Source of the DNA: a virus
Taxonomy: Duplodnaviria > Heunggongvirae > Uroviricota > Caudoviricetes
Virus record (IMG/VR): IMGVR_UViG_2690316131_000017
Direction: 5' to 3' (one strand)
DNA length: 16,159 nt
Positions 1 to 16,159 of the stretch are shown one piece after another. Every line of letters begins with the position of its first letter. Position 1 is the first letter of the stretch. Position numbers and translations under genes: made by a program. The notes below the pieces were generated by a model. That model saw nothing but the letters and a program-made list of their open reading frames with translations, was not told the DNA's origin and did not search any database.

Positions 1-1461
1 ATGAAAAAATTACTGCGTCTTTTTTTCCCGCTCTCACTGCGGGTACGTTTTCTGTTGGCAACGGCTGCGGTAGTACTGGTGCTTTCGCTTGCCTACGGAA
101 TGGTCGCGCTGATCGGTTATAGCGTCAGTTTCGATAAAACTACGTTTCGGCTGTTACGTGGCGAGAGCAATCTGTTCTATACCCTTGCGAAGTGGGAAAA
201 CAATAAGTTGCATGTCGAGTTACCCGAAAATATCGACAAGCAAAGCCCCACCATGACGCTAATTTATGATGAGAACGGGCAGCTTTTATGGGCGCAACGT
301 GACGTGCCCTGGCTGATGAAGATGATCCAGCCTGACTGGCTGAAATCGAATGGTTTTCATGAAATTGAAGCGGATGTTAACGATACCAGCCTCTTGCTGA
401 GTGGAGATCATTCGATACAGCAACAGTTGCAGGAAGTGCGGGAAGATGATGACGACGCGGAGATGACCCACTCGGTGGCAGTAAACGTCTACCCGGCAAC
501 ATCGCGGATGCCAAAATTAACCATTGTGGTGGTGGATACCATTCCGGTGGAGCTAAAAAGTTCCTATATGGTCTGGAGCTGGTTTATCTATGTGCTCTCA
601 GCCAATCTGCTGTTAGTGATCCCGCTGCTGTGGGTCGCCGCCTGGTGGAGTTTACGCCCCATCGAAGCCCTGGCAAAAGAAGTCCGCGAACTGGAAGAAC
701 ATAACCGCGAATTGCTCAATCCAGCCACAACGCGAGAACTGACCAGTCTGGTACGAAACCTGAACCGATTGTTAAAAAGTGAACGCGAACGTTACGACAA
801 ATACCGTACGACGCTCACCGACCTGACCCATAGTCTGAAAACGCCACTGGCGGTGCTGCAAAGTACGCTGCGTTCTCTGCGTAGTGAAAAGATGAGCGTC
901 AGTGATGCTGAGCCGGTAATGCTGGAGCAAATCAGCCGCATTTCACAGCAAATTGGCTACTACCTGCATCGTGCCAGTATGCGCGGCGGGACATTGCTCA
1001 GCCGCGAGCTGCATCCGGTCGCCCCACTGCTGGACAATCTCACCTCAGCGCTGAACAAAGTGTATCAACGCAAAGGGGTCAATATCTCTCTCGATATTTC
1101 GCCAGAGATCAGCTTTGTCGGTGAGCAGAACGATTTTGTCGAGGTGATGGGCAACGTGCTGGATAATGCCTGTAAATATTGCCTCGAGTTTGTCGAAATT
1201 TCTGCAAGGCAAACCGACGAGCATCTCTATATTGTGGTCGAGGATGATGGCCCCGGTATTCCATTAAGCAAGCGAGAGGTCATTTTCGACCGTGGTCAAC
1301 GGGTTGATACTTTACGCCCTGGGCAAGGTGTAGGGCTGGCGGTAGCCCGCGAAATCACCGAGCAATATGAGGGTAAAATCGTCGCCGGAGAGAGCATGCT
1401 GGGCGGTGCGCGGATGGAGGTGATTTTTGGTCGCCAGCATTCTGCGCCGAAAGATGAATAA
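1..1461 (+). CDS. phoQ: sensor histidine kinase PhoQ (complete, 486 aa)
   Basis: ATG at 1-3, TAA at 1459-1461. Translation shows two TM segments flanking a periplasmic domain with an acidic patch (EDDDDAEM), an H-box ([11 protein letters not shown]) and HATPase boxes (DNACKY, DDGPGI, GQGVGL). Length and sequence match my recollection of E. coli PhoQ. Confidence 0.96.
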
Positions 1462-1476
1462 ATATGCCCTTTTATC

Positions 1477-1566
1477 ACTACACCAGGTCAAGCCATTGAT
1501 TTAATTAAATAATTATCATTGAAAAAGTGCCAAAAATCGCAAATTGACTACACCATTAACTACACC
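1477..1566. repeat. three direct copies of ACTACACC (1477-1484, 1547-1554, 1559-1566)
   Basis: Read directly from sequence. Lies in the AT-rich junction between the phoQ stop and the first island gene; candidate recombination or arm-type site. Confidence 0.4.
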
Positions 1567-1582
1567 GTTCGGTGCACTGTAT

Positions 1583-1608
1583 GAAACAACGTGGAACAAA
1601 TAGACACA
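1583..1608 (+). promoter_or_regulatory. copy A of the AACAACGTGGAACAA motif (1585-1599) with a degenerate third AACAA box
   Basis: The 15-mer is identical to the one at 8980-8994 and one mismatch from the one at 14848-14862 (opposite strand). Confidence 0.45.
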
Positions 1609-1977
1609 AGAAATATACAGGCGGGTAATCTTTCCAGGGGGAAGCGCACCAATTCATGAGGGGCGTTAATGTCGATATGGGGATCCCCATAACGGGGCTA
1701 CCGGATTTTTTTCCGGTTAACATTTAATCAGGCTGGTGGGTTTTACATACCCTTGATCACCGTAATGATGATCCAGATGTGCACCTTTTCCACCAATGGC
1801 GGAAAAGCTCCAACCGTAACGATGATCGCTATGGTTGCCTCGATGGTCTGCGTGGTCATTATGACCATTCAGCCAGTGACCTTAATCAGAATTTTTCGCT
1901 AAAAAATGACGTTGGCCACGTCATCCTGATAGCACAAAATCACGTCGATTTTTAATGAACGGTTAAACCGTCTTTTT

Positions 1978-2012
1978 GTCACGGTGTGTCACTGGTTGTC
2001 ACTCTCCGTCAC
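1978..2012 (+). repeat. four GTCAC boxes at exactly 10-bp spacing (1978, 1988, 1998, 2008)
   Basis: Seen in sequence: gtcacggtgt gtcactggtt gtcactctcc gtcac. Helical phasing suggests cooperative protein binding, possibly integrase arm-type sites. Confidence 0.4.
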
Positions 2013-2126
2013 GATTGAGGTGGTGGTCATTCTGCCCGACCGCGCATTTTTGCGCTATCGGGAATATAAAACAGTTACCGCCGTCAGCTACCCAGCTCAG
2101 AATTGAGCCGCCTTTTAATCAACAAG

Positions 2127-7605: not shown

Positions 7606-8763
7606 TTAATCGTCGTCCTGTGGCAGTTCCAGAATCTTGATCGCGTTCGAATCCACCACGCCACCGCCTAAATATTTCTGCGTGAAAATTTTGATGAAGC
7701 CCGGCTCTGTGAGGTTGTCCGGTCTGGTGCGAACACCTGTTTCGTGATCAACAATGTAGTAACCGCGTTTGAAGTCACCCAGGGCAATAACGTTATCAGG
7801 CATAAACTCCAGATATTCGACCGGAAGGCCCAGCAACGTATCAGGATCACCCGCCTGTAAACGGTCACGCCAGATGTAATCACCGTTCGCGTTCTTCACC
7901 TTCTGGAGTTTTGCCGCCGTCGTGGAGTTAACCACCCAGACCGCGTTTTTGCGGTATTTTTTACGTAATGCAAATTTCAGGTCGATCAGCGGGTCCGCAG
8001 ATGTCCACGCCAGAGATTCGGAAGGTTTAATTACCTGCAACGTACCAAAATCACGCTCTTTGTCGTTCTTCTCTGCACGGGGTACGGATAAAAAGCCTTT
8101 TGCTTTTTTGTCACCGTCGCCCACAACCAGATCGCTTTCTTCGGTTTCCGTGAAGGTGTCGCCAATCTCGCCCGTCAGCCATGAAAGGATGTCCACATCG
8201 GAAAAATCCACGATTTCCTGTGTGGTGCGCGGGTACGCATAGACCGGATACAGCTTAATGCTCACCTCGTTAATCTGCGGGGTGCTGGTCTGTTCGCGTG
8301 CCTTACCCTCTTCACCGTGGTTAACGGTCGCACCGCCAGCGGAAACAAGCTGCTTAAACTCGTTGCTGCTGATTTTCTTCACGGTACAGATGCGGCGCAT
8401 GGTGGATTCATCCGCCAGCATTCGCATGATTTCGGTGTTCAGTTCGGGGATAACGGTATAACCACCATCAGCGGGAACGCCTGTACTTAATGCGCGGGTT
8501 TCACCCGTCAGAATGTAGTTTCGTAGTTCTGCGGGGTCAGTGGTCTGACTGCTTTTACCTGGCTTGCTGCGCTCTTCGTCTGCAATGGCTTCAAGGCGGG
8601 AAATGTCTTTATCGAGGGATTCAGCTTTAGCGCGTAATTCGTCAAATTTTGCGCCCTCAGCATCGTTAAGACTGCGGTTTTCTTTTTCAGCGTTCTCCAG
8701 CATGTCGCGCATCTGATTTTTAATGGCGGTTTTCTGCTGGCGTAATTCGATTATTCTCGGCAT
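7606..8763 (-). CDS. major capsid protein, HK97 fold, with N-terminal coiled-coil delta (scaffold) domain
   Basis: N-terminal ~100 aa is heptad-rich and charged, followed by an HK97-like capsid body. No separate scaffold gene. First ATG at 8763; the track ORF extends to a TTG at 8808. Confidence 0.85.
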   Translation of the reverse strand: MPRIIELRQQKTAIKNQMRDMLENAEKENRSLNDAEGAKFDELRAKAESLDKDISRLEAIADEERSKPGKSSQTTDPAELRNYILTGETRALSTGVPADGGYTVIPELNTEIMRMLADESTMRRICTVKKISSNEFKQLVSAGGATVNHGEEGKAREQTSTPQINEVSIKLYPVYAYPRTTQEIVDFSDVDILSWLTGEIGDTFTETEESDLVVGDGDKKAKGFLSVPRAEKNDKERDFGTLQVIKPSESLAWTSADPLIDLKFALRKKYRKNAVWVVNSTTAAKLQKVKNANGDYIWRDRLQAGDPDTLLGLPVEYLEFMPDNVIALGDFKRGYYIVDHETGVRTRPDNLTEPGFIKIFTQKYLGGGVVDSNAIKILELPQDDD

Positions 8764-8978
8764 AAAAAAAAGTCCTGGGGTTAAGTAAGGAACTCCAGGA
8801 CGCGGCAAACACTCAACCGTTTTTCATAAGGAAATCAGCAATCGCACCGATCGTTTTCCCGCCTGGTAATGAATATTGGCGAGCACATTAACAGGCGGGA
8901 AAGTGGCCCCAGCGTCCTGGCACCACGGGCGAGAATAATCATGATTCAGTTCGGGTAAAATATGCCGATCCGCTCAGT

Positions 8979-9008
8979 GAACAACGTGGAACAACCACGA
9001 ACAAATAA
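8979..9008 (+). promoter_or_regulatory. three 10-bp-phased AACAA boxes overlapping the -35 of the packaging-operon promoter
   Basis: GAACAACGTG GAACAACCAC GAACAAATAA. On the minus strand the proximal box (TTGTTC) sits 16 bp upstream of TATTTT (8957-8962), about 190 bp upstream of the capsid ATG. Confidence 0.5.
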
Positions 9009-9289: not shown

Positions 9290-9373
9290 TGCGTTTTCCT
9301 CTGTTGTGTCTGTTTGTTTCAGATAGTAACTATGCCGGACCGTGACGAAAAGCCAGTAGTGCTCCATACCGTT

Positions 9374-10188: not shown

Positions 10189-11943
10189 TTATAAAAACGC
10201 GTCACAATCATCCGTTGTAATTGCGTTGGTCTGCGTTACTCCCTTAACTTTCCGCGTAATATATTCATGTCCGTAAACTTTTGCCGCTGGCTTCATGGCC
10301 TTGCTGAACTCAGCCACGTTTAGCGGTTTGCTCCTGCCTGCGTATGCCATAAACGCCAGATAGACGCGGTAAAGGCTGTTCCTGGTCGTGTACTTCACTG
10401 AATCGCCACCGCCACCCATCATCAGGCCGCGCGCTTCCTCCAGAAAATTCAGGAACTGGCAAAACTCAATAACCGGATCCGTCTGTTGCTTTATTGCCAG
10501 TGCTTCATCACCGTCGCGCTGTTCCAGGAGTAAAGCCCGTGCCTTTTCAGGGTCGGCAAAGTTCGCCAGTAATCGGCGGATAATCACAGGGATTTCAGCC
10601 GCAATCTTTTCCGGTAGCTCCCTGTCTTTTTCGGCCTCACTGACGATATTGTCGAAACGGAAAATCACGCGACGACGTGCCACACCTCCGGCCCGTTCGG
10701 TGAATATCATCGGGTTGTTGTTGGTCGCCAGCACCACCGCCCTGATTACCGCCGTGAAACGCTTTTCATATTTCGGGTTAATTTCCACGGGGTCGCCGCC
10801 CGTGATTTTCTTGATGCCCGTTCCTTCGCCTGTATATTTCGGCTGGTCTGCCAGGACGATAAGACGACTCCCGACAACCTGCGCACGTCCACCAGCATCA
10901 TCAAGCGATGTCATCTCAGCGCTTACCGTGTTCTGTTTCCCTGCCAGAAGGCTGGCTATGTGTGTGAATGTACTTTTACCGCTCCCGCCGTCTCCGGTGG
11001 CCTCAATAAACATCTGCCAGTCGTACCGGTTCGCCATAATCATGTACAGCGCGGCACATATACGCATCATCTTGCGCGGGTCTTTTCCGGCTGCGTGCTC
11101 AAGCCATTTATGAAAGTTTGGCGCGTTGTCGCGGATATTCTCCCCTGGTGCTGGTGGCGTGTACTCAATGCCGTTATGCGTGGTGATCCAGTTCTCCGGC
11201 GTGTGCGGGGAAAATTCCCCCGTTTTCAGGTCAAGCACACCATTGGCGAACGGCAGCAAATCGCCGGACGGTTCGCCCATTGGTTCGGCAATAACTTTTA
11301 ACGCTTCCACGGTGTTATTGATTACGCGCTTGCTGAAAGTGGCCCTGTGCTCTGAATAGATCGCCACCATTTCGCGGCTCAGTGCCATTGTGCTGACCGG
11401 ACACCATACCCCGCCGCGCCATACGTGAACGATTTCACTTTCAGGATGTACGCAAACGCCATCAAAGCGCCCGGCAAGCAGCTGCGCGCGCTCACTGTCC
11501 GCCATCTGCGAAAGTTGCGCCTTTTGCTTTACCGGAAGCTCAATGACCAGACCATCAGAAAGATTCTGGCGCTCACGGGCCAGATATTCGCGCCAGTTCT
11601 CCACCTCCTGAACGTGCATTCCCTCAGGGTAAAAATTTGCATCCTGTACACCTGCCGCCGCCAGCTTCTGACCAATCGCCTTTATCATTACAGGCTCAAG
11701 ATGTCCGGCCCTGAATATGCGTACTGATTTTCGGCCTTCCGGCACAATTTGCAGCTTATCCAGTTCGGATAACTGCTGCTCCCCAAGCCACACAGGAGGC
11801 TCATTATCTCCGGCCATACGCGCGTCATGTTCCTGCCATTGTTTTGCGTGTGACCAGGCATCACTACCCGCAAAAATAATGACTTCTGTTTCTTTGTGTT
11901 TTATGCCGCGTGACTGCTGTTTTACGTTCGGTGCCAGTTTCAT
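10189..11943 (-). CDS. P4-family primase/helicase (replication initiator)
   Basis: 584 aa with a Walker A P-loop (GDGGSGKST) in a D5/P4-type helicase region preceded by a primase-like N-terminal domain. ATG at 11943 overlaps the upstream stop (ATGA). Adjacent to the iteron ori. Confidence 0.88.
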   Translation of the reverse strand: MKLAPNVKQQSRGIKHKETEVIIFAGSDAWSHAKQWQEHDARMAGDNEPPVWLGEQQLSELDKLQIVPEGRKSVRIFRAGHLEPVMIKAIGQKLAAAGVQDANFYPEGMHVQEVENWREYLARERQNLSDGLVIELPVKQKAQLSQMADSERAQLLAGRFDGVCVHPESEIVHVWRGGVWCPVSTMALSREMVAIYSEHRATFSKRVINNTVEALKVIAEPMGEPSGDLLPFANGVLDLKTGEFSPHTPENWITTHNGIEYTPPAPGENIRDNAPNFHKWLEHAAGKDPRKMMRICAALYMIMANRYDWQMFIEATGDGGSGKSTFTHIASLLAGKQNTVSAEMTSLDDAGGRAQVVGSRLIVLADQPKYTGEGTGIKKITGGDPVEINPKYEKRFTAVIRAVVLATNNNPMIFTERAGGVARRRVIFRFDNIVSEAEKDRELPEKIAAEIPVIIRRLLANFADPEKARALLLEQRDGDEALAIKQQTDPVIEFCQFLNFLEEARGLMMGGGGDSVKYTTRNSLYRVYLAFMAYAGRSKPLNVAEFSKAMKPAAKVYGHEYITRKVKGVTQTNAITTDDCDAFL

Positions 11944-13453: not shown

Positions 13454-13540
13454 CTGTGCGCACAGATTAAAATCATGTGTGCGCACATGTCAATACTTAA
13501 CATCTCATTTTTTTTGCTGTATTGTGTGCGCCCATAAAGT
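13454..13540. promoter_or_regulatory. divergent promoter/operator switch with TGTGCGCACA palindromes
   Basis: Perfect 12-bp palindrome CTGTGCGCACAG (13454-13465), 10-bp palindrome TGTGCGCACA (13478-13487) and a half-site TGTGCGC (about 13525-13531). Leftward promoter read on the minus strand: TTGACA (13488-13493), 16-bp spacer, TTTAAT (13466-13471). Candidate rightward promoter TTGCTG / TAAAGT. Confidence 0.55.
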
Positions 13541-13561: not shown

Positions 13562-13759
13562 ATGTCTAGCGGTAACACAAACAACAAATCAGCAAAGAAA
13601 AATATTCGATTCCCGCATGAGCTTATAGATGGGATTGATGCCAGCGTTGAACAAGAAAAATTAACTAATCCTAGTGCTAATTTTTCCGCATGGGTCTTAG
13701 ATGCCTGTGGACGCAAATTAAAATATGAACAGCGCCGGAAGGCCAAAGAATCAGAATAA
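13562..13759 (+). CDS. small DNA-binding-like protein (65 aa), candidate island repressor; possibly YlcI/YnfO-like
   Basis: ATG at 13562 with a GTGAGGTG Shine-Dalgarno. The segment KKNIRFPHELIDGIDASVEQE ... NFSAWVLDACGRKL has a strand-helix-helix pattern suggestive of a ribbon-helix-helix fold. The YlcI/YnfO (DUF3950) resemblance is from memory and unverified. Confidence 0.55.
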   Translation: MSSGNTNNKSAKKNIRFPHELIDGIDASVEQEKLTNPSANFSAWVLDACGRKLKYEQRRKAKESE

Positions 13760-14002: not shown

Positions 14003-14079
14003 TGACAGATTTGCCAACCAGCCAAAAATGTGGCATCGTTGTCGATACATAGTGTAATCAACATGTATATCATATTTTT

Positions 14080-14106
14080 GCGACCATCATAGGTCGCATT
14101 TTTTTT
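14080..14106 (+). terminator. intrinsic terminator (GCGACC-atcata-GGTCGC followed by T8)
   Basis: Perfect 6-bp GC-rich stem followed by an 8-T run; about 80 bp downstream of the plus-strand gene pair. Confidence 0.7.
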
Positions 14107-14376
14107 GCCTGTAATCCGGCAATTGTGGCGCTTCTTCACACAGTTGATATAATTCCAATGCTCATATTTATTTTTTGTGCAGCAGGTTAATCGTTCACAA
14201 AGGCGCTCAGGTAACTGGGCGCTTTTTGTTATGCCTGAAAAACCCCAATTTTGTTGTTTTTCAGTTTCACCAGGGCGAACGAATCCCCGCCTACGTTCTG
14301 GCGTATATTCAATCTTCATGGTTATAGCTCTGTGTTCAGATGATTGATGTGTGGCGGCTGCGTGCCGCCAGCGTGA

Positions 14377-14565
14377 TTAATGAACTGCCTTGCAGCTATC
14401 CTTCCAGGCCAGAACCTCGGATAAAGACCAGCCAACGGAACGACCGCCAAGTTTACGACGTGATGGGAATTGTCCGGCCTTTTCCAGGCGGTAGCGACAC
14501 GTACGGCTAAGGCCGGTTAGTTTTTCGCATTCTTTTTCACGTATAAACCGATCAGTGCTTAACAC
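14377..14565 (-). CDS. alpA: AlpA-family transcriptional regulator / excisionase-like protein
   Basis: 62 aa; the motif LTGLSRTCRYRLEKAGQFPSRRKLGGRSVGWSLSEVLAW matches the AlpA/excisionase winged-helix family. GTG start at 14565 with an AAGGGGG Shine-Dalgarno 5 nt upstream. Confidence 0.8.
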   Translation of the reverse strand: MLSTDRFIREKECEKLTGLSRTCRYRLEKAGQFPSRRKLGGRSVGWSLSEVLAWKDSCKAVH

Positions 14566-14837
14566 TATTGCCCCCTTTCGTTTCTTAAAGAGTCATCAGG
14601 TGTCTTATTGTGTCGTATTGTTCCCGCTAGAGTGATAAATGGCAAATACTGAGGATGTATGATTTACAGAAAATGAAACAGTAAGAATAAAATCTTTTAA
14701 ATTCACGTTAATACAAAGGCATAAAATATTGTTTCATGCCTTTTTTCTCGCTCTTTAAAGAGTGATTCGCTAGTGTATAAAAAACCAGTAACGCATTAAA
14801 AATCAGCCACTTATAAATCCGTACGCTTTTTCGCCTC

Positions 14838-14912
14838 TTGTTCGTAGTTGTTCCACATTGTTGCTCATTGTTGCACGTTGTATCTGTTCGCATATACAGT
14901 ATGCGCATACTG
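14838..14912. promoter_or_regulatory. five tandem 10-bp units beginning TTGTT (14838-14887) plus a 16-bp perfect palindrome CAGTATGCGCATACTG (14897-14912)
   Basis: Units TTGTTCGTAG, TTGTTCCACA, TTGTTGCTCA, TTGTTGCACG, TTGTATCTGT at exact 10-bp period. The second unit pair equals the 15-mer motif with one mismatch. Lies between the int stop (14930) and the alpA start. Confidence 0.5.
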
Positions 14913-14929
14913 AAAAAACACGAAAAAAA

Positions 14930-16159
14930 TTATTTTCTTCTGGCTACTGGTAGCGTGGTTACGTTTTCATGTGTTCCCGCCAGTATCCCTAACCGCTCCG
15001 TCCACATATCCAGCGCATTGCGTTTAGCATCCAGATAACGGGAATGATTATAAACTCGCTGCATTCCTGGCATCTGGTGGCCTGTAAGCTGCTCCACGAC
15101 GTGAGAATCCACGCCTAAATCGTTCAGCATCGTTGTAAAGGTGCGCCGGATGTCATGTAGTGACCAGTGAGGGTGATTTAGCCTCCTGTGCGCTAATCTG
15201 CCGTACTGCGACACGCTTGTTTCCTGTTTCACTTCCCCCAGCAATAAACCCGTGTGCCTGTTCTGCTCCACCAGCTGCGTGACGAACGGCAGTATTGCTT
15301 CCGGTATGGGCCGGAATATTGCCACCTTCGTTTTGCTGTGTTCTTTCGGCACGGTCCAGAGCATTTCGGTAAAATCCCACTCGCTGATCTCCGATAACCT
15401 CAGTTCTACCGTCCGGCATCCGAACACAATCAGGAGGCGGATTAGCGCGATGTAGTAGGGGGAGAATATTTTTTTGTCCAGTGCCTGCAATAATTCGCCA
15501 AGTTCTTTGTTGCTTAAGACACGCTCGCTTATATCCGGTTTTTTCCCAACGTCCGCCACACTCATATCATCAAGAACGTTGCTGATTGCATAGCGCCGCT
15601 TCCGGCAGAACTTAAGCGCCTGCTTGCATGTCTGTAGCAGGAACCCGGCGGAAACAGGGGCTTGCTTTGCCACCCGATCAAAACAGGCCAGCCAGTGCCG
15701 TAGCTCGCATTTATCCAGCGGCATAGGGCCAATGTGCTGTATTACGTGATTATTTAGCCGCTTTTTCAGTGGGTCATAATCCACACGGTTTTCCTTTGCG
15801 TACGACTCAAGCCAGTAGGTGAGCGTATCACCAACCGTTACCGGCTTTAACGCTTCCTGTACGGTGTAATTCATCTCATGACGTGGATTTTTCCCCTCAG
15901 CCAGCCATGCGCGACACTGGGCGGCTTTTTCCCTGGCTGATTTCAGACTCAGATCAGGATAATTTCCCAGCTTAATGCGTTCCGGTGGTGCCCCCCTTCC
16001 CGTTCCGGCCCTGTAAGTGAAATACCAGGTTAAAAGGCCGCTGGTTGAATGCCTGACGCTCAGATTTCCACCGTCATTAAGAAAGGCTGTTTTTTGGGCG
16101 GGTGTGCCGTTGATTTTCCTTAGCAGTGTATCGCTCAGTTTGTTAAGTGCTCTGCTCAT
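14930..16159 (-). CDS. tyrosine integrase with N-terminal arm-binding (DUF4102-like) domain
   Basis: 409 aa. N-terminal arm-binding-type pattern (LSDTLLRKI ... LNDGGNLSV ... WYFTYR ... IKLGNYPDLSLKSAREKA) and a C-terminal catalytic region with R..HxxR..Y-type residues (HDIRRTF ... HSRY). The ATG is the last 3 nt of the window, so the upstream region and att site are not visible. Confidence 0.9.
   Translation of the reverse strand: MSRALNKLSDTLLRKINGTPAQKTAFLNDGGNLSVRHSTSGLLTWYFTYRAGTGRGAPPERIKLGNYPDLSLKSAREKAAQCRAWLAEGKNPRHEMNYTVQEALKPVTVGDTLTYWLESYAKENRVDYDPLKKRLNNHVIQHIGPMPLDKCELRHWLACFDRVAKQAPVSAGFLLQTCKQALKFCRKRRYAISNVLDDMSVADVGKKPDISERVLSNKELGELLQALDKKIFSPYYIALIRLLIVFGCRTVELRLSEISEWDFTEMLWTVPKEHSKTKVAIFRPIPEAILPFVTQLVEQNRHTGLLLGEVKQETSVSQYGRLAHRRLNHPHWSLHDIRRTFTTMLNDLGVDSHVVEQLTGHQMPGMQRVYNHSRYLDAKRNALDMWTERLGILAGTHENVTTLPVARRK

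Follow-up and report, generated by a model that had tools for sequence, protein, structure and literature searches.

Excisionases that assemble as filaments on phased repeats, and that use them for recombination as well as for transcription, are known from P4, P2, 186 and ICEs (integrative and conjugative elements). The sites of such recombination directionality factors (RDFs) are head-to-tail repeats one helical turn apart, in which weak single sites are combined with strong cooperativity and with bending of the DNA (PMC7498355). Here we describe an array of this form in a stretch of viral DNA of 16,159 nucleotides (IMG/VR record IMGVR_UViG_2690316131_000017, referred to below as the window), which on sequence grounds is a capsid-forming phage-inducible chromosomal island (PICI) inserted between phoQ and roxA. 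The array, at 14838-14887, lies between the 3' end of the integrase gene int and alpA, and we favour, with a probability of roughly 0.55, the explanation that it is an AlpA filament site which works together with IHF and forms the control module upstream of alpA. New here are the recognition of the motif and the mapping of its copies in E. coli PICIs; in the PICI literature that could be searched we found no definition of AlpA binding sites.

The closest described system is Vis of P4, followed by Apl of 186, Cox of P2, TorI and RdfS. Vis is reported to bind the P4 attP region (PMC2603039); besides binding attP it bends it, and it also acts as a regulator of promoters (PMC2603039, PMC7498355). 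The attachment (att) arms of P4 and of the island are laid out alike: P4 has 12-bp doublets (GGGGGCA), annotated as 'attP arm sequence repeat', in both arms, and between the core and int these doublets are preceded by two blocks of 10-bp-phased units. Work by Cali from 2004 is said to place Vis between core and int at two boxes, Box I and Box II. Vis represses its own late promoter; the AlpA of PICIs, in contrast, is reported to activate. Both elements have the RDF gene first in the main operon, and in both, on our own reading, the phased units near that gene lie on the strand opposite to that of the int-proximal arm units. They differ in the sequence of the unit, which is (N)NTCC/GTCC in P4 and TTGTT(C/G) in the island, in that P4 has no five-unit array at the int 3' end, and in their integrases, which are only 23% identical.

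Apl and Cox, dual-purpose excisionases whose operator arrays are found both at att and at their own promoter, resemble the island in having direct repeats one turn apart (186 has five of them at att and seven in the stretch between pR and pL), with weak single sites, strong cooperativity and DNA bending, and in being encoded first in the operon that they regulate (PMC7498355). Unlike AlpA, they are not AlpA-family proteins, and their promoter arrays are placed between face-to-face promoters and repress, whereas the main array of the island is far upstream and beside an IHF site, with activation as the reported net effect. TorI, from KplE1 (CPS-53), is a fold match to the AlpA model with weak sequence similarity. 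Its attL sites have GTTCG, GATCG and GTCCG cores, three of them in a tandem block (PMC2951348), and we read them as CAGTTCGTCA TGGTTCGCTT CAGATCGTTG with 10-bp spacing, close to TTGTTCGTAG and TTGTTCG; they are placed between the core and int, where they overlap with the promoter of int. TorI is, however, not a PF05930 protein, its sites are known only at attL, and no array has been described at the torI promoter or after intS. RdfS of ICEMlSymR7A forms a head-to-tail winged-helix filament, binds both attP and its own promoter, and coordinates its own expression with that of the integrase (PMC11963761), which resembles what is proposed for the island; it has no clear consensus site and carries an extra N-terminal oligomerisation helix, whereas the island motif is sharply defined.

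The array consists of five head-to-tail 10-bp units on the + strand, TTGTTCGTAG TTGTTCCACA TTGTTGCTCA TTGTTGCACG TTGTATCTGT. A sequence-only reading of the window had described five consecutive units starting with TTGTT; the number of units and their exact 10-bp spacing stand, but only four begin with an exact TTGTT and the fifth begins TTGTA. Tandem Repeats Finder assigns the array a period of 10, and the pattern TTGTTN5TTGTT has six matches in the window against 0.04 expected, a number that none of 200 shuffled sequences reached. The array thus contains the three or more direct repeats about one helical turn (10-11 bp) apart that characterise excisionase sites, and a position weight matrix scan of the window gave no other phased TTGTT array in the int-alpA spacer. 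The same reading was right about the location, since int occupies 16159..14930 and alpA 14565..14377, both on the - strand, about the kinship of the array with sites upstream of the capsid operon and at the end of the island, and about a 15-mer, TTGTTCCACATTGTT, that is shared near-exactly with these but lies opposite to the gene strand. Its two other copies, each with one mismatch, are at 8980-8994 (-) and at 1585-1599 (-), both on the gene strand. An open reading frame of 66 aa at 14708..14908 (-) runs beneath the array and was rejected as a gene, since a relative with 97% identity retains only 33 aa of it and CFT073-type spacers lack it; its Pfam match is below threshold, and there is no RefSeq annotation at that place. 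Comparison of related sequences leads us to regard the array stretch as non-coding and under selection.

The segment of the window from 14300 to 15000 (701 bp) is present in 877 of 5426 complete E. coli genomes, and nine int-alpA spacers from at least four lineages, 76-99% identical, were aligned. Every one of the nine has five or six units in a single 10-bp register on the + strand, and the last TTGT unit is 31 or 52 bp from the int stop codon. In the TTGT cores, which are positions 1-4 of the units, conservation is 93-98%, compared with 69-80% for positions 6-10 and a spacer mean of 82%. A second, proximal array nearer to alpA (14608..14627, +; TTGTGTCGTA TTGTTCCCGC) is made of TTGTGTC units, of which other lineages have three to five; it is weaker than the distal array at 14838-14887, has the same strand and the same 10-bp register, and its indels between lineages are exactly 10 bp long. 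Cores that are kept while the bases between them drift, with gain and loss of whole units, are the pattern expected of RDF sites. The spacer of CFT073 has the same two arrays, distal and proximal. We note that a sister lineage (L011/L012), whose AlpA is 55% identical, lacks the array after int. Its mid-spacer instead has three (G/T)GTTCG units, which keep the same strand; their distance is about 130-160 bp to alpA and about 250 bp to the stop codon of int, and a terminator-like hairpin after int stands between that gene and the units.

The neighbourhood of the distal array is conserved in a similar manner. A match to the IHF consensus (AATCAGCCACTTA; WATCARNNNNTTR) at 14801..14813 (+) is 24 bp from the first TTGTT unit. 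The consensus has four matches in the window against 1.1 expected, and the equivalent of this one is exact in eight of the nine spacers with six different N tetramers, so that the consensus positions are kept and the N positions are free, as in an IHF site; we regard it as a predicted site. Its distance from the array is 24 bp in seven spacers, including both window-type and CFT073-type ones, with different sequence in between. Likewise, 64 bp separate the array from a conserved block at 14760-14785 in window-type and CFT073-type spacers, whereas the intervening DNA can barely be aligned between the two types. On the other side of the array, before the int stop codon is reached, a pair of A-tracts (A6 and A7) spaced by 10 bp at 14913..14929 (+) is kept in all nine spacers and would likely give an intrinsic bend. 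Between int and the alpA promoter region there is a conserved hairpin, AAAGGCAT...ATGCCTTT, at 14715..14750 with T6 on the + strand; it has a predicted energy of -14.5 kcal/mol (z -4.1) on the - strand and shows a compensatory change, GGCAT/ATGCC versus GGCGTAAA/TTTACGCC, and it looks like a bidirectional terminator.

The perfect 16-bp palindrome CAGTATGCGCATACTG at 14897..14912, which had been placed ten base pairs beyond the array, is indeed perfect, but the gap is 9 bp. About 0.25 palindromes of this kind are expected per 16 kb by our own calculation, so that its occurrence is only mildly unexpected. It is found in six of the nine aligned spacers; in the other three it is missing, and because further TTGT units take its place in CFT073-type spacers we consider it lineage-specific; it probably does not belong to the core of the module. 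As an intrinsic terminator it was rejected, with -10 and -7 kcal/mol (z -1.7 and -1.35) and no U-tract on either strand, and a terminator scan of the region did not list it. Nor did the proposed kinship of its TGCGCA core with palindromes at 13455-13487 survive: the hexamer occurs eight times in the window against 8.6 expected, a chance level, and an operator related to the TGTGCGCACA palindromes was rejected, as the flanks differ (GTATGCGCATAC versus TGTGCGCACA) and TGCGCA is all that is common to them. The two TGTGCGCACA palindromes themselves, at 13455-13464 and 13478-13487, are 23 bp apart and upstream of a divergent gene, 13562..13759 (+), encoding a 65-aa DUF3950 (YlcI/YnfO-family) protein and ending in a strong terminator at about 14075-14106; they probably serve as operator for a small regulator whose gene is transcribed in opposition to the alpA operon.

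The TTGTT motif defines a family of arrays, whose members are the distal and proximal arrays of the spacer, a third array upstream of the capsid operon and a copy in either att arm; three strong arrays are inside the window. The capsid-operon array, TTGTTCGTGG TTGTTCCACG TTGTTCACTG at 8975..9004 on the - (gene) strand, directly follows a terminator. It is present in the capsid-forming islands that were fetched and absent from classical PICIs, and the first 25 nt of the distal array are nearly identical to it (identical in L017). Judged by eye, a weak -35 could be provided by its last unit (TTGTTC-N16-TATTTT). The left att arm has TTGTGTCTAT TTGTTCCACG TTGTTTCATA at 1580..1609 (-), which adjoin a 12-bp tandem doublet, GGTGTAGTTAAT GGTGTAGTCAAT, at 1543..1566 (-), and an IHF consensus at 1489..1501 (-) lies between the att core and the doublet. 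All relatives examined have a further TTGTT array that falls just beyond the window, upstream of int, and the doublet GGTGTAGTnnnn x2 is also upstream of int, outside the window, in L001, L002, L004-L006 and L010. Each att arm has a TTGTT array of three to four units adjoining a 12-bp doublet (GGTGTAGTnnnn x2), and the same units as in the spacer stand next to proposed integrase arm-type sites, the right arm being seen in L001/L002 and others. When viral contigs were scanned for TTGTTCCACNTTGTT, most matches were single and apparently due to chance, but two IMG/VR contigs from the viral fraction (L029 and L085) carry it twice, 7.4 kb apart; the left-arm and capsid arrays of the window are separated by the same distance, and for this reason the two contigs are probably packaged capsid-forming islands.

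That the spacer array might be a set of Int arm-type sites, or a secondary or relic recombination site, is suggested by the TTGTT arrays in both att arms and by the IHF consensus that adjoins the spacer array as it does in the left arm. The distribution of the doublets makes this very improbable. In an island at the thiM-rcnR site (L013), the overall identity of Int is 65% and the arm-binding region at its N terminus is visibly different; both arms have a changed doublet, TGTGTGGTCAGT x2, the arrays still read TTGTT(C/T)G, and the recognition helix and wing of its AlpA are kept. An arm-type site is expected to track the N-terminal domain of Int and to have a fixed place on both arms; the doublet tracks Int and the TTGTT array does not. 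The doublet also matches the annotated arm repeats of P4, and in layout the GGTGTAGT doublets of islands are the same as the doubled motif of helper-embedded PICIs (tgTGTATTGCa x2), a tandem 12-bp repeat co-oriented on both arms at about 81 and 132 bp from the crossover (PMC10111431), a parallel that concerns the doublet and not the TTGTT array. That motif was reported as absent from other PICIs, and its ligand was left open (PMC10111431). An island at the fis site (L021) has TT(G/A)(T/C)TCG units and a GGTGTAGT doublet upstream of int. Given the shared layout with P4 and with helper-embedded PICIs, the 12-bp doublet seems to be a general motif class for this integrase family. On the strength of the change with the Int N-terminal domain, the P4 layout and the helper-embedded PICI doublets we assign the doublet to Int, which leaves the TTGTT units to AlpA. 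The spacer array itself is about 1.4 kb from the int-proximal att arm and has neither a doublet nor a core-like sequence nearby. Of the earlier suggestion of a recombination-directionality or arm-type site array, the first half comes close in that the array has the form of an RDF site with true copies in both att arms; it is not an Int arm-type array, and it is not itself an att-arm site. As a separate observation, the ends of the L012 locus in strain A34 (2150-2480 and 16792-17050) have the TGTGTGGTCAGT doublet on the thiM side and GGTGTAGTCAAT on the cspD side, which looks like the result of recombination between two islands, or else of a rearrangement of the chromosome between two att sites.

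AlpA is a 62-aa winged-helix protein of the AlpA/Vis excisionase family (PF05930, E 5e-17; 14377..14565, -), a small winged-helix RDF encoded on the same element as the repeats. It is 45% identical to P4 Vis, which is also a PF05930 protein. Its model (pLDDT 86.5) has the GIsul2 excisionase 8c3t as best fold match, with TM 0.83-0.90, followed by RdfS as the second-best, Pukovnik Xis and TorI. A search with the protein gave 19 close relatives, and all PICI AlpA alleles that were fetched combine an R-T-x-R-Y/F helix with units of the TTGTT or GTTCG type; P4 Vis, with a different helix, has different units, which is only one contrast. An antitermination role like that of Q was considered and rejected, as the Pseudomonas AlpA antiterminator is larger, has a C-terminal helix-turn-helix at about residues 128-142 and a single GGGACG element, and is not of this 62-aa family.

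In EcCICFT073, AlpA supplied in trans activates an alpA-promoter fusion and has no effect on a Pint fusion (PMC6092414). The only sigma-70-like match that a promoter scan returned for the spacer, TTGCCA-N17-AACAAT at 14617..14645 (-), points toward alpA; the sequence TGGCAAA does not vary among the nine spacers, and the proximal array extends over the -10 and start region predicted for alpA. A second promoter candidate near 14760-14790, with a -10 of TACACT chosen by eye, falls in a conserved block; it has a poor -35 and fails the criteria of the scan, and we leave it as a possibility only. We also note a 9-mer, ACTCTTTAA, on the - strand at 14585-14594 and 14752-14764, about 168 bp apart, with one copy just upstream of the alpA ribosome-binding site and the other beside the conserved hairpin; both are nearly invariant in the nine spacers and could be sites for some further regulator.

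Reading the distal array as an upstream, IHF-assisted AlpA site would account for the activation reported in EcCICFT073, the constant 24-bp gap to the IHF site and 64 bp to the conserved block, the A-tracts, and the placement of the units in L011/L012. One AlpA monomer would occupy each TTGTT(C/G) unit, head to tail and one helical turn apart, and five or six subunits would form a cooperative, DNA-bending filament that cooperates with IHF bound 24 bp away and with the two in-phase A-tracts. The distal array would be the upstream half and the proximal TTGTGTC array the downstream half of the alpA control region; the distal complex would enable AlpA to activate its own gene, as was reported for the closely related EcCICFT073 spacer, and the proximal array could cap expression at high AlpA. 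AlpA and its motif would also serve both att arms in excision and the capsid-operon promoter in activation.

Several observations weigh against this explanation. The distal array is 190-270 bp upstream of the only sigma-70-like match, beyond the conserved terminator-like hairpin, so that activation would need bending or looping, or else an unrecognised promoter near 14760-14790, where the sigma-70 score is poor. Its orientation is inverted with respect to the capsid-promoter array, and the two cannot act with one shared geometry. The proximal array, lying over the predicted core promoter, would on its own predict repression and not the reported activation. The L013 and L021 islands have no such spacer array, and the feature is thus not universal. 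Finally, the link between AlpA and the TTGTT units is drawn from the exclusion of Int and from analogy and does not amount to true covariation, because the alleles compared keep similar recognition helices; a search for covariation by genome scan gave three loci, of which the two distant ones have no informative arrays, and L023 yielded nothing.

The proximity of the array to int has suggested other roles. In all nine spacers it adjoins the int stop codon at a distance of 10-45 bp, an inverted sister array is present upstream of int, both Vis and TorI lower integrase expression (PMC2951348), and Vis is reported to bind RNA (PMC2603039). AlpA could accordingly control int from its 3' side, as a roadblock, through a loop with the inverted upstream array, or at the level of RNA through the five AACAA repeats in the int 3' untranslated region. 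We consider this unlikely, as AlpA has no effect on the Pint fusion in EcCICFT073 (PMC6092414), the L011/L012 lineage parts the array from int, and conservation that follows helical phase, with proximal indels of 10 bp, is a DNA-level signature. The array also points toward int and begins with the near-copy of the capsid-operon array, which is consistent with an AlpA-activated + strand promoter that fires into the int 3' end and produces an int-antisense RNA, as at the capsid promoter; an antisense promoter of this kind had been put forward in the sequence-only reading. The published test of AlpA on int would miss such a 3' element, since the Pint reporter, as described, contains the int promoter region only (PMC6092414) and would therefore lack the 3' array. 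A promoter-like match on the + strand is nevertheless absent from 14300-15100, no + strand sigma-70-like -10 follows the array, and nothing is conserved there at a fixed distance: window-type and CFT073-type spacers have no common hexamer at a constant spacing, and a reading by eye gives only CTGAAAAA, 32 or 12 bp away. In the L011/L012 lineage, moreover, the array is about 250 bp from the int stop codon with the terminator-like hairpin between them. An antisense promoter is thus distinctly unlikely.

A role for the helper phage has a precedent in P4, where three TTAAAG repeats upstream of vis, which we take to be the cox boxes (three, with 10-bp spacing), are found. P2 Cox acts at cox boxes located upstream of the late promoter from which P4 expresses vis. 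An excisionase-type protein encoded by a helper and made early by it might similarly bind the distal array and, with IHF, switch alpA on, after which AlpA would take over the sites; this would mirror P2 Cox at P4 vis and would explain how unrelated helpers induce Gram-negative PICIs. Transcription of alpA does depend on a helper phage (PMC6092414), and there is a report of cross-talk between a phage and an E. coli PICI at the level of the excisionase (PMC11773190). The island itself, however, carries this motif in its att arms and at its capsid promoter, which speaks for a protein of the island, and these islands are induced by several unrelated helpers (PMC6092414); we regard a helper-encoded ligand as quite improbable, and AlpA remains our preferred occupant of the array.

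The island in which these arrays reside is about 14.7 kb long and lies 3' of phoQ (1..1461, +), which precedes it; in the stated layout all of its genes are on the - strand. Its gene layout is the same as that of EcCIEDL933, the type capsid-forming PICI, and its relatives in complete E. coli genomes are at the same phoQ-roxA site with matching annotation. The int gene encodes a P4-family tyrosine integrase with an N-terminal Arm-DNA-bind_3 domain, a primase is encoded at 11943..10189 (-), and a packaging block on the - strand comprises major capsid, protease, portal, connectors, HNH and terminase genes. Comparison of the empty site in MG1655 with the junctions in strain RM6927 (L002) gives an att core of about ATAAATATG(C/T)CC, and the core region ATAAATATGCCC at 1457..1469, directly past the phoQ stop codon, marks the left island boundary by comparison with the empty MG1655 site.

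Several other repeats in the window deserve mention. Directly past the last gene of the packaging operon, at 1977-2015 (+), are four GTCAC units in exact 10-bp phase (TTTTTGTCACGGTGTGTCACTGGTTGTCACTCTCCGTCACG), with five units in a diverged relative (L006, 4733-4777); they could be recognition repeats for the small terminase (cos/pac) or replication iterons. A pair of TTGT units, TTGTGTCTGT TTGTTTCAGA, at 9304-9323 (+) lies in the leader of a perC-like gene on the strand opposite to the genes and mirrors the proximal array of the alpA leader. The terminator AGCCGGAGCAATCCGGCT with a T-run occurs twice in the main operon, at 9408-9391 and 9045-9028 (-), and about 55-60 nt beyond either copy there is a similar CGGCATA(G/T)TT..AC motif, in one case before the perC-like gene and in the other before the capsid leader, which suggests repeated terminator-plus-promoter modules in the main operon. 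The capsid leader itself (8763-8945, -) is about 210 nt long and contains a 36-codon upstream open reading frame (from 8942) and a hairpin, GTCCTGG...CCAGGAC with T8, directly before the annotated capsid ATG, with no obvious ribosome-binding site; it may place the late operon under control by attenuation or antitermination.

In Gram-negative phage-inducible islands AlpA acts as the master switch. The TTGTT(C/G) arrays with 10-bp phasing mark five places, namely both att arms, two sites of alpA control and, in capsid-forming islands, the promoter of the capsid operon, with the 12-bp doublets of the att arms assigned to the integrase. If our explanation is true, a single 62-aa protein would couple excision of the island, amplification of its own synthesis, and the production of capsids.

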